Source: Trueperaceae bacterium
GTDB lineage: Bacteria > Deinococcota > Deinococci > Deinococcales > Trueperaceae
Reading direction: 5' to 3'
Length of the DNA stretch: 64,000 nt
Assembly (NCBI GenBank): GCA_965213925.1
Contig: OZ243927.1
Coordinates: forward strand, 1,760,001 to 1,824,000
Below the pieces are notes generated by a model. That model was not told the DNA's origin and searched no databases. It saw only the letters and a program-made list of their open reading frames with translations. Positions 16,683 to 17,807 of the stretch are shown here, in pieces (the first letter of the stretch is position 1; each line of letters starts with the position of its first letter). Made by a program: the position numbers and the translations under genes.

Positions 16683-17807
16683 ATGAGTCAAGGTCCTACC
16701 GGAATCGTCATGATGAACTTGGGCGGTCCCAAAAATTTAGATGAGGTCCAACCCTTTCTCCTCAAACTGTTCGAAGACCGCGAGATCATCCAACTTCCCG
16801 TGCAGAAATACCTGGGTCCTTTCATCGCGAACCGCCGCACCAAAAGCGTGCAGCAGAACTACGCCGACATCGGCGGCGGCTCCCCGATTCTCAAGTGGAC
16901 TGAGGAGCAGGGGCAGGGCATGGTGGAGCGCTTAGACGAGATGTCACCGGAGACCGCGCCACATAAGTTTTACGTCGCATTTCGTTACGTCAACCCCTTT
17001 AGCGAAGACGCCCTACAAGCGATGAAAAACGACGGCGTCAAGCGAGCGGTGGCGTTCACGCAGTACCCGCAGTTTTCGTGCTCCACAACGGGCTCGTCCT
17101 TGAACGAACTCTGGCGGGCAGCGCGTCGCGTCGGATTGCAAAACGAGTTCGAGTGGAGCGTCATTGACCGCTGGCCCACCCATCCGCGCTTCATCGAGGC
17201 GATGACGGAGACCGTGAAGCAAGGTCTGGAACAGTTCGACGAGGCAGACCGCGACGACGTGCTCGTCCTCTTTAGCGCGCACTCGCTGCCCTTAGACGTT
17301 ATCAACCGGGGCGACGCCTACCCCGCCGAAATCGGCGCGTCGGTCCACGAGGTGATGTCGCGCTTAGACTACTCGCATGAATACATTCTCGCCTATCAGT
17401 CCGACGTAGGTCCGGTGCCCTGGCTCGGACCTGGCACCGAAAAGGTTCTCAAGAATTTAGGCGCGAAAAAGCGCAAAAACGTCCTCGTCGTCGGCGTCGC
17501 CTTCACGAGCGACCATATCGAGACGCTCCACGAACTCGACATCGAGTATGGCGAGTTAGCGCATGAGGTGGGCATCGAAAACTACAAGCGTGCGCCCGCT
17601 CTAAACGGAATGCCTGTCTTTCAAGACGCGCTCGCGGAAATCGTACATGAGCATCTTCAGTCCGGCGAAGCCTGCACGAAGCAGTACGGTTTGCGCTGCC
17701 CCGGCTGCGTGAACCCGCAGTGTCGCAACATCCTCAATCCGGTTGCGCCTTATAAGCGCACGAAGGTGAGTGTGGGGAAAGGGAACAAGCAGTATCAGGC
17801 GGTGTAA
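16683..17807 (+). CDS. hemH: ferrochelatase, eukaryote-like, with C-terminal [2Fe-2S] cysteine motif
   Basis: NLGGP, [21 protein letters not shown].ELD motifs; [13 protein letters not shown] and CPGCVNPQC. Confidence 0.96.
   Translation: [374 protein letters not shown]

Follow-up and report, generated by a model that had tools for sequence, protein, structure and literature searches.

The question raised by this locus is how a bacterium of the Deinococcota comes to encode a ferrochelatase that resembles the human enzyme. The gene in question, hemH/ppfC, lies at 16683..17807 (+) in a 64,000-nucleotide stretch of a Trueperaceae genome (GenBank assembly GCA_965213925.1, contig OZ243927.1, positions 1,760,001 to 1,824,000 of the forward strand), which was analysed as a whole and is referred to here as the window; unless otherwise stated, coordinates are positions within it. 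Its predicted product is a protoporphyrin ferrochelatase (PpfC; 374 aa, PF00762, TIGR00109) with a C-terminal extension bearing putative [2Fe-2S] ligands. From sequence and fold, the conservation of the ligands, gene content and placement in trees, we regard it as probable that this is the sole PpfC of the genome, that it holds a [2Fe-2S] cluster and serves a protoporphyrin pathway, and that its gene, which belongs to a bacterial clade, was gained by an ancestor of the Trueperaceae from another bacterium.

Identification of the ferrochelatase gene

The open reading frame (ORF) list and translation gave a single ORF with an ATG start and 374 codons for amino acids at the hemH locus. Its product matched Pfam PF00762 over profile positions 2-317 of 317 (E 3.6e-110, 368.3 bits; cut-off 27) and NCBIfam TIGR00109 (hemH) at 357.8 bits (cut-off 124.6). 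A sequence search of the PDB returned human FECH at 460 bits (E 4.8e-137), the yeast enzyme at 347 bits and that of Bacillus subtilis at about 126 bits, with 56% identity to human FECH over 347 columns. A preliminary description, made from the sequence, had drawn attention to animal- or fungal-like blocks and to a C-terminal CPGCVNPQC, and all of the peptides that it quoted are present in the translation. An AlphaFold model computed from 40 sequences (predicted local distance difference test score, pLDDT, 93.9; predicted template modelling score, pTM, 0.92) adopted the class II chelatase fold and was superposed on human FECH (PDB 1hrk) with template modelling (TM) scores of 0.90/0.94 and a root mean square deviation of 1.4 Å at 56% identity; identities in the corresponding comparisons were 47% for the yeast enzyme and 26-27% for the B. 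subtilis coproporphyrin ferrochelatase (CpfC).

The predicted catalytic residues are His200 (codon 17280..17282 (+), in FSAHSLP, at the position of human H263) and Glu280 (codon 17520..17522 (+), in TSDHIETL, at the position of human E343), both invariant in alignment A3 and in all row groups described below; human FECH variants H263, H341, E343 and M76 and B. subtilis Y13 are named in PDB entry titles. Alignment with the mature human chain begins at query residue 5, and no mitochondrial presequence was found at the N-terminus of the Trueperaceae protein, eukaryote-like representatives having 20-105 extra N-terminal residues. Judged by these matches, the product is a genuine ferrochelatase.

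Candidate cluster ligands

Two sets of cysteines align with the cluster ligands of human FECH, which we take to be C196, C403, C406 and C411. The internal candidate, Cys133 (codon TGC, 17079..17081 (+)), was identified by in-frame reading and alignment, and three C-terminal candidates are provided by C339-X2-C342-X4-C347 (CPGCVNPQC, 17697..17723 (+)). In the PDB alignment, fsCsttgss of the query lies over ysCsttgss of the human protein and the C-terminal motif over human lsCplCvnpvC; pLDDT across residues 331-360, the region of that motif in the model, was 86-92.

Conservation was scored without loci whose ORF was cut or spanned less than query residues 10-345, except those that a tree set already contained. 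His200, Glu280 and Cys133, Cys339, Cys342 and Cys347 were all kept in every row from Trueperaceae (32/32), Gemmatimonadota (42/42), Chloroflexota (6/6), Myxococcota (4/4) and other bacterial metagenome-assembled genomes (MAGs; 4/4), so that the four ligand-position cysteines are kept across 88/88 rows of the bacterial clade. Among 30 distant representatives, the three C-terminal cysteines occur in only 3-4, none of which also has a cysteine equivalent to C196, and the C-terminal tail is missing in E. coli, in one alphaproteobacterium and in 7/7 other Deinococcota ferrochelatases. The preliminary description was right that the protein is animal- or fungal-like and carries an animal-type cysteine motif missing from the majority of bacterial HemH proteins. 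By this alignment and conservation, the Trueperaceae ferrochelatase most likely binds a [2Fe-2S] cluster in the manner of human FECH, through Cys133, Cys339, Cys342 and Cys347.

Substrate and haem pathway

Residue Leu13 occupies the position of human M76 and B. subtilis Y13, which we take to be the discriminator between PpfC and CpfC; Tyr is found there in 7/7 other Deinococcota rows. The genome, which is 96.9% complete, encodes HemF and a HemY-type protoporphyrinogen oxidase, PgoX (TIGR00562, 290.9 bits; best PDB match 2ivd), and contained no match to ChdC/HemQ (PF06778) or HemJ. It has no second ferrochelatase, its other weak match to PF00762 being a CbiX sirohydrochlorin chelatase that adjoins a tetrapyrrole methylase. 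HemF is the pathway partner two steps before ferrochelatase, and its gene (33658..34587 (-); PF01218, E 5.7e-122; NF003727, 402.7 bits) lies 16 kb from hemH. The Leu at the M76/Y13 position, taken together with the presence of HemF and PgoX and the absence of ChdC, is the reason for reading the enzyme as a PpfC. It would insert Fe2+ into protoporphyrin IX through the His200/Glu280 site, as the last step after HemE, HemF and the HemY-type PgoX.

Pathway replacement within Deinococcota

A search of 201 Deinococcota genomes compared the family of the source genome (Trueperaceae, f1) with four other families (f2 to f5). Ferrochelatase of this type was found in 35/40 other Trueperaceae genomes at 70-98% identity; matches outside the family, all at 35% identity or less, numbered 22/92 in f2, 57/57 in f3, 9/9 in f4 and 2/2 in f5. 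Counts for the partner enzymes ran opposite ways: ChdC was found in 0/4 and HemF in 4/4 genomes of f1, as against ChdC in 68/68 and HemF in 0/68 of f2, 42/42 and 0/42 of f3, and 6/6 and 0/6 of f4. Over 41 Trueperaceae genomes, ChdC was present in 2 and HemF in 32, the latter count including the unpublished genome G367. A record of Deinococcus radiophilus shows the usual hemE-hemH-hemY cluster, and HemQ is placed in Deinococcus-Thermus in the part of PMC5095920 cited here.

From the occurrence of HemF without ChdC in Trueperaceae, and the opposite in the other families, we infer that the family uses the protoporphyrin route and that its enzyme is a protoporphyrin ferrochelatase. Judged by gene content, the terminal haem pathway has been replaced in Trueperaceae, HemF and PpfC being found there versus CpfC and ChdC in other Deinococcota; a protoporphyrin pathway would thus stand in for the coproporphyrin pathway. 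A full-text literature search, with subscription journals outside its coverage, found no paper on Truepera and ferrochelatase and turned up no printed account of this switch of haem route among Deinococcota.

The two Trueperaceae genomes with ChdC are G365 (C1:936621-937175), which also has no HemF, and G370 (C394:5689-6114); they may be lineages in which the coproporphyrin pathway was kept, and could serve to date the replacement. The five family genomes in which this query gave no ferrochelatase match, at 92-98% completeness, are G141, G161, G166 and G185 (genus g8) and G182, and in G141 neither HemF nor ChdC was found. They may be haem auxotrophs or carriers of a divergent enzyme.

Bacterial relatives outside Deinococcota

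A profile of this ferrochelatase type was run against one genome per bacterial species, and 589 of at least 593 matched stretches were confirmed, giving at least 589 relatives in species-representative bacterial genomes. By title, the best 80 loci comprised 46 from Gemmatimonadota, 19 from Trueperaceae or Deinococcota, 6 from Chloroflexota (Ca. Chloroploca, Viridilinea, Roseilinea and Bellilinea), 4 from Myxococcota, Bradymonadia or 'delta proteobacterium', 4 from unnamed bacteria and 1 from 'Roseobacter sp.'; many of these 80 sit on 0.1-4.5-Mb contigs. The highest identities to the Trueperaceae protein were 73% for Gemmatimonadota, 71% for Chloroploca and 62% for Myxococcota, and those of named eukaryotes were 49-57%. 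The distribution is patchy: across 151 sampled Gemmatimonadota genomes, any match was found in 78 and a match at 60% identity or more in 20 (one of them the unpublished G262). In a plasmid collection, 0/160 hemH-bearing records reached 60% identity, the values noted being 39.5% for a cyanobacterium (top-ranked), 32% for two Deinococcus records, 29.7% for E. coli and 28.6% for an alphaproteobacterium.

The locus titled 'Roseobacter sp.' (L040, JAYTNY010000142.1, genome G204) carries a ferrochelatase that groups with that of a Chloroflexota MAG (100/96). Any ferrochelatase match was found in 21/81 genomes of the class of G204, and because of this count and the grouping the title is suspect; probably the organism name is wrong or the contig is mis-binned.

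In a search of 5.8 billion proteins, the best 120 relatives had 80-100% identity, except for one 649-aa arthropod entry at 50%, and the named entries among them were Trueperaceae, Truepera radiovictrix or Deinococcota MAGs; the T. radiovictrix orthologue has 82% identity. In a library clustered at 50%, the best matches were eukaryote-like (52-57% identity), since the nearer relatives from bacteria are collapsed in it, and a look-up in the ESM Atlas returned only generic ferrochelatase clusters. A pseudoscorpion entry titled 'FECH, partial' (649 aa; entries P0046/P0285) had an unusually high score for 50% identity and is possibly a duplicated or fused gene model; a sturgeon entry among P0046/P0285 is flagged UNVERIFIED_CONTAM.

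Phylogenetic analysis

The main tree, a careful LG+G4 analysis, comprised 61 rows and took the other Deinococcota as its root; supporting trees were a quick LG+G4 tree (110 rows) and a quick posterior mean site frequency (PMSF) tree (57 rows), both concordant with it. A supergroup of bacteria and eukaryotes (45 rows) was recovered with support of 97/96, outside which fell E. coli with Pseudoroseomonas (100/100), a cyanobacterial group, the Deinococcus/Thermus-type enzymes and all other distant representatives. Within it, a eukaryote clade of 17 rows (100/97) contained no bacterial sequence; its named anchors come from a crayfish and a yeast, from two oomycetes and, as five transcriptome sequences, from protists, and a further 8 rows were called eukaryotic from their position and N-terminal extensions only. 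A second clade, of 19 rows (100/94), was made up of Gemmatimonadota, Trueperaceae, Chloroploca/Viridilinea and one Bradymonadia sequence, and the main Trueperaceae clade (100/97) was placed in it among Gemmatimonadota sequences (92/72).

These trees support a relationship, as a supergroup, between the bacterial clade and the mitochondrial enzymes, in keeping with part of an earlier suggestion that a bacterial clade is sister to the latter. Within the supergroup, the eukaryotes may be either sister to the bacterial group or nested in it. The Trueperaceae gene does nest in a widespread bacterial hemH clade, which the preliminary description had set against its own reading, yet that clade is itself eukaryote-like. 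The resemblance to human FECH would then be due to this clade being, among the bacterial relatives found, the closest to the mitochondrial enzyme.

Approximately unbiased (AU) tests were made on groups that were set after the trees had been seen, except for Trueperaceae with eukaryotes, which was the hypothesis of the preliminary description. Forcing that group into one clade was rejected (p 0.0003, log-likelihood difference 101.6), and forcing all 28 bacterial supergroup rows into one clade was not (p 0.076, difference 12.3). A clade of the six Trueperaceae rows was rejected (p 0.024), and the conflict was gone when MAG L081 was added to them (p 0.476); a clade of the nine Gemmatimonadota rows was not rejected (p 0.069).

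Since the nearest relatives are bacterial and the Trueperaceae are nested among Gemmatimonadota, the gene is read as having reached the family from other bacteria. By the proposed history, hemH came from a bacterial clade with a patchy occurrence over Gemmatimonadota, Chloroflexota, Myxococcota and Trueperaceae, and an ancestor of the Trueperaceae would have gained it horizontally; a Gemmatimonadota-like donor is likely, the nearest sequences being from that phylum. In 16/30 Trueperaceae-type loci a same-strand hemF precedes hemH, its end being no more than about 250 nt away, and in 5 more it lies within 4 kb; no hemF was found in flanks of up to 6 kb at 46 Gemmatimonadota-titled hemH loci. 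Gemmatimonadota HemF proteins were found in 9/101 genomes and have 45-54% identity. A joint transfer of hemF and hemH from Gemmatimonadota is unsupported because of this low identity, this low count and the lack of adjacent pairs.

Several points weigh against the explanation favoured here. One family member, L112 (G193:C24), is separated from the main Trueperaceae clade and pairs with MAG L081 (100/99). A Gemmatimonadota donor is no more than likely, given the AU result for Gemmatimonadota monophyly and the occurrence of the type in only 20/151 genomes of that phylum, and HemF shows no obvious sign of having been transferred together with hemH. Alphaproteobacterial sampling in the tree amounts to one named sequence, the three basal supergroup rows (P0137, P0139 and P0151) carry no taxon name, and the site-heterogeneous evidence consists of the quick PMSF tree. 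Within the family, ChdC is present in two genomes, and 5/40 yielded no match to ferrochelatase. The cluster and the preferred porphyrin are assigned from homology and from gene content. As a separate observation on L112, a second acquisition or an unresolved branch are both possible, and genome G193 also has no HemF.

Alternative explanations

The rival that survives best is a single ancient transfer from an early eukaryote to bacteria, followed by spread among Gemmatimonadota, Chloroflexota, Myxococcota and Trueperaceae, which we consider unlikely. It would be compatible with the single clade of 28 bacterial supergroup rows that the AU test admitted, with the patchy occurrence in bacteria (20/151 in Gemmatimonadota and 3/81 in the class of G204) and with the tail past the cluster motif (CR.I.NP..PY), which the protein has in common with oomycetes and protists. 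It is opposed by the basal rows: with CpfC-type rooting, P0137 falls outside both the eukaryotes and the other bacteria in the maximum likelihood (ML) and quick PMSF trees, P0139 and P0151 come next outside under LG+G4 (92/79, 95/75; in a polytomy under PMSF), and all three appear to be bacterial. It is opposed further by the occurrence of the type in at least four phyla, by identities between bacteria of 57-73%, a divergence about as great as that from eukaryotes, and by the absence of any bacterial sequence from the eukaryote clade.

Vertical inheritance, with an enzyme ancestral in Deinococcota that was replaced in the Deinococcus and Thermus lineages, is improbable. Its near-universal occurrence in Trueperaceae (35/40) and its composition, which is at home in the genome, fit this history, against which stand the position of the Trueperaceae inside a short-branched clade of Gemmatimonadota and Chloroflexota (100/94), the presence of CpfC and ChdC in all other sampled families, and the ChdC still present in two Trueperaceae genomes. 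We give similarly little weight to the enzyme being a CpfC, or having no cluster and using its cysteines for disulfides or zinc binding. Substrate and cofactor are assigned by homology here, and a HemY-type oxidase can serve either pathway; on the other side, ChdC is missing, HemF is present and Leu stands at the CpfC Tyr position, and the four cysteines lie on the human ligand positions with the same spacing and are invariant in the 88 bacterial rows.

A direct transfer from an animal, fungus or protist to Trueperaceae, as the preliminary description had proposed on the similarity to human FECH, and as the eukaryote-like top matches of the 50%-clustered library would suggest, can be set aside as extremely improbable, since bacterial relatives are closer, the AU test rejected it, the protein has no presequence, the composition of the gene is not anomalous, the gene is kept across the family, and megabase-scale contigs argue against the Gemmatimonadota, Chloroflexota and Myxococcota sequences being mis-binned Trueperaceae. 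Acquisition from another bacterium is thus retained as the probable source of the Trueperaceae gene.

Upstream and downstream signals

The major facilitator superfamily (MFS) gene upstream of hemH stops 37 nt before the ATG. A -10-like hexamer, TAAACT (16671-16676 (+)), lies 6 nt before the ATG at 16683 and is a candidate leaderless promoter; the arrangement of TAAACT, 6 nt and ATG that had been reported is present in the raw sequence at 16671-16683. A scan upstream of hemH found no two-hexamer sigma-70 site. In 8/8 aligned Trueperaceae upstream regions a TANNNT hexamer stands 5-7 nt before the ATG, and this narrow range of distances, with a variable spacer, fits a promoter from which a leaderless hemH mRNA would be transcribed. 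Leaderless mRNAs are common in Deinococcus.

A near-palindrome, GGACATATGTCT (16645..16656, no strand assigned; also given as GGACATATGTCY), is centred 32 nt before the ATG as a candidate operator and is kept in 4/8 aligned relatives, a fifth having a variant of it. A perfect copy, GGACATATGTCC, was found at G000:C1:3147361-3147372 (L127 1562-1573), upstream of a gene for a multihaem cytochrome c (c7/c3 family), in the 678-nt intergenic stretch that separates this gene from one for a flavin reductase. The palindrome may be a shared operator of haem-related genes. Genome-wide, it has 7 distinct sites at one mismatch or less, one other of which is intergenic, and its strand hits were about equal in number to those of a backwards-read control pattern (11 versus 9); a palindrome regulon is unsupported because the counts are no higher than in that control.

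Downstream, a terminator-like hairpin with a T-run (17843..17868 (+); stem 17843-17861, then CTTTTTC) lies between hemH and a convergent DUF1648 gene. The number of terminator-like sites in the region is not above that in shuffles.

Genomic setting

The window sits at 1.76-1.82 Mb inside a 4.58-Mb contig of a genome assembled in 6 contigs (96.9% complete). GC content over hemH, a chromosomal gene, is 0.54-0.60, in line with its surroundings, and composition is normal. Contigs from runs of another study bridge the upstream junction (X2 record 9, 15400-17065; X4 record 26, 16463-16786); a chimeric assembly or contamination is ruled out by the 4.58-Mb contig, the conservation across the family and these bridging contigs. 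In run X1, within 16612-17722, summed contig depth leaps from about 7 to 50-400 where hemH is conserved. Many X1 contigs are 90-95% alike there, and several related organisms with this gene type are therefore taken to be present in that sample.

The genes around hemH are of ordinary bacterial kinds and encode an MFS transporter, a glyoxalase, two M16 peptidases and proteins of the NifU_N scaffold and DUF1648 families. The NifU_N gene, for an IscU/SufU-type Fe-S scaffold, is at 14411-14830 (-), 1.9 kb upstream of hemH and in the opposite orientation. A loose grouping of haem genes extends over 33658-41255 (-), where hemF is accompanied by hemE (uroporphyrinogen decarboxylase, 35250..36272 (-); PF01208, E 1.7e-119; TIGR01464, 386.9 bits) and hemB (porphobilinogen synthase, ALAD, 40209..41255 (-); PF00490, E 1.7e-129). 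A PIN-domain gene (34587-35000) sits between hemE and hemF, and a gene for a pyridoxal phosphate (PLP)-dependent decarboxylase (36269-37663) has a 4-nt overlap with the start of hemE.

Comparison with known enzymes

The Trueperaceae enzyme shares with human FECH (PDB 1hrk, 2qd3) the fold, both catalytic residues (His and Glu), an internal Cys and the C-terminal C-X2-C-X4-C spacing, and differs from it in having no presequence, a Leu for Met at the M76 position and another tail after the last Cys, and in falling outside the eukaryote clade in trees. With the CpfC enzymes of Deinococcus/Thermus and B. subtilis it has in common the superfamily, the fold and the catalytic His and Glu, whereas these proteins have only 26-35% identity to it, carry Tyr at the Y13 position, are without both the C-terminal extension and the Cys ligands, and have ChdC rather than HemF as their partner. 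The Myxococcus xanthus type is a bacterial PpfC with a cluster, as the Trueperaceae enzyme most likely is, but its ligands are in an internal insertion according to the sections of PMC8529089 cited here, and the Trueperaceae enzyme has no such insertion and has the C-terminal arrangement instead. The Myxococcota MAG sequences L024 and P0372 are of the C-terminal ligand type.

C-terminal [2Fe-2S] ferrochelatases are already known in bacteria, so the Trueperaceae gene is not new in kind. The cited sections of the survey of Weerth, Medlock & Dailey 2021 (PMC8529089) report C-terminal motifs in Rhodothermus, Salinibacter, 1/2 Gemmatimonadetes, some Planctomycetes and 25% of sampled Alphaproteobacteria, with Caulobacter cited as experimentally confirmed. 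In the same sections the motif is given for 0/5 Deinococcus-Thermus and 0/8 Chloroflexi, Truepera does not appear in the sample, and an alphaproteobacterial source is assumed for the eukaryotic enzyme. The types surveyed are the same kind of enzyme, but those sections describe no bacterial clade that groups with eukaryotes and has exactly the animal spacing. Cihlar et al. 2016 (PMC5115734), in the portion cited here, call the mitochondrial enzyme 'eukaryotic in origin' and name no bacterial sister.

Origin of the mitochondrial enzyme and significance

The bacterial clade and the mitochondrial enzymes together exclude the proteobacterial sequences sampled, which makes the origin of the eukaryotic enzyme testable with better sampling. 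We propose, tentatively and with somewhat less than even confidence, that the eukaryotic mitochondrial ferrochelatase and its [2Fe-2S] site did not come from the alphaproteobacterial endosymbiont and have a specific common origin with the enzyme of Gemmatimonadota, Chloroflexota, Myxococcota and Trueperaceae. If this were true, these bacteria would retain the nearest extant relatives of the human FECH ancestor, and the cluster would be older than eukaryotes. Bacterial proteins of this kind, robust and tolerant of oxygen, that have exactly the human ligand layout are possible tractable models for the unexplained role of the FECH cluster. The remaining interest of the Trueperaceae gene thus lies in the bacterial clade as a possible source of the mitochondrial enzyme and, for the phylum itself, in a pathway replacement that sets Trueperaceae apart from the other Deinococcota.

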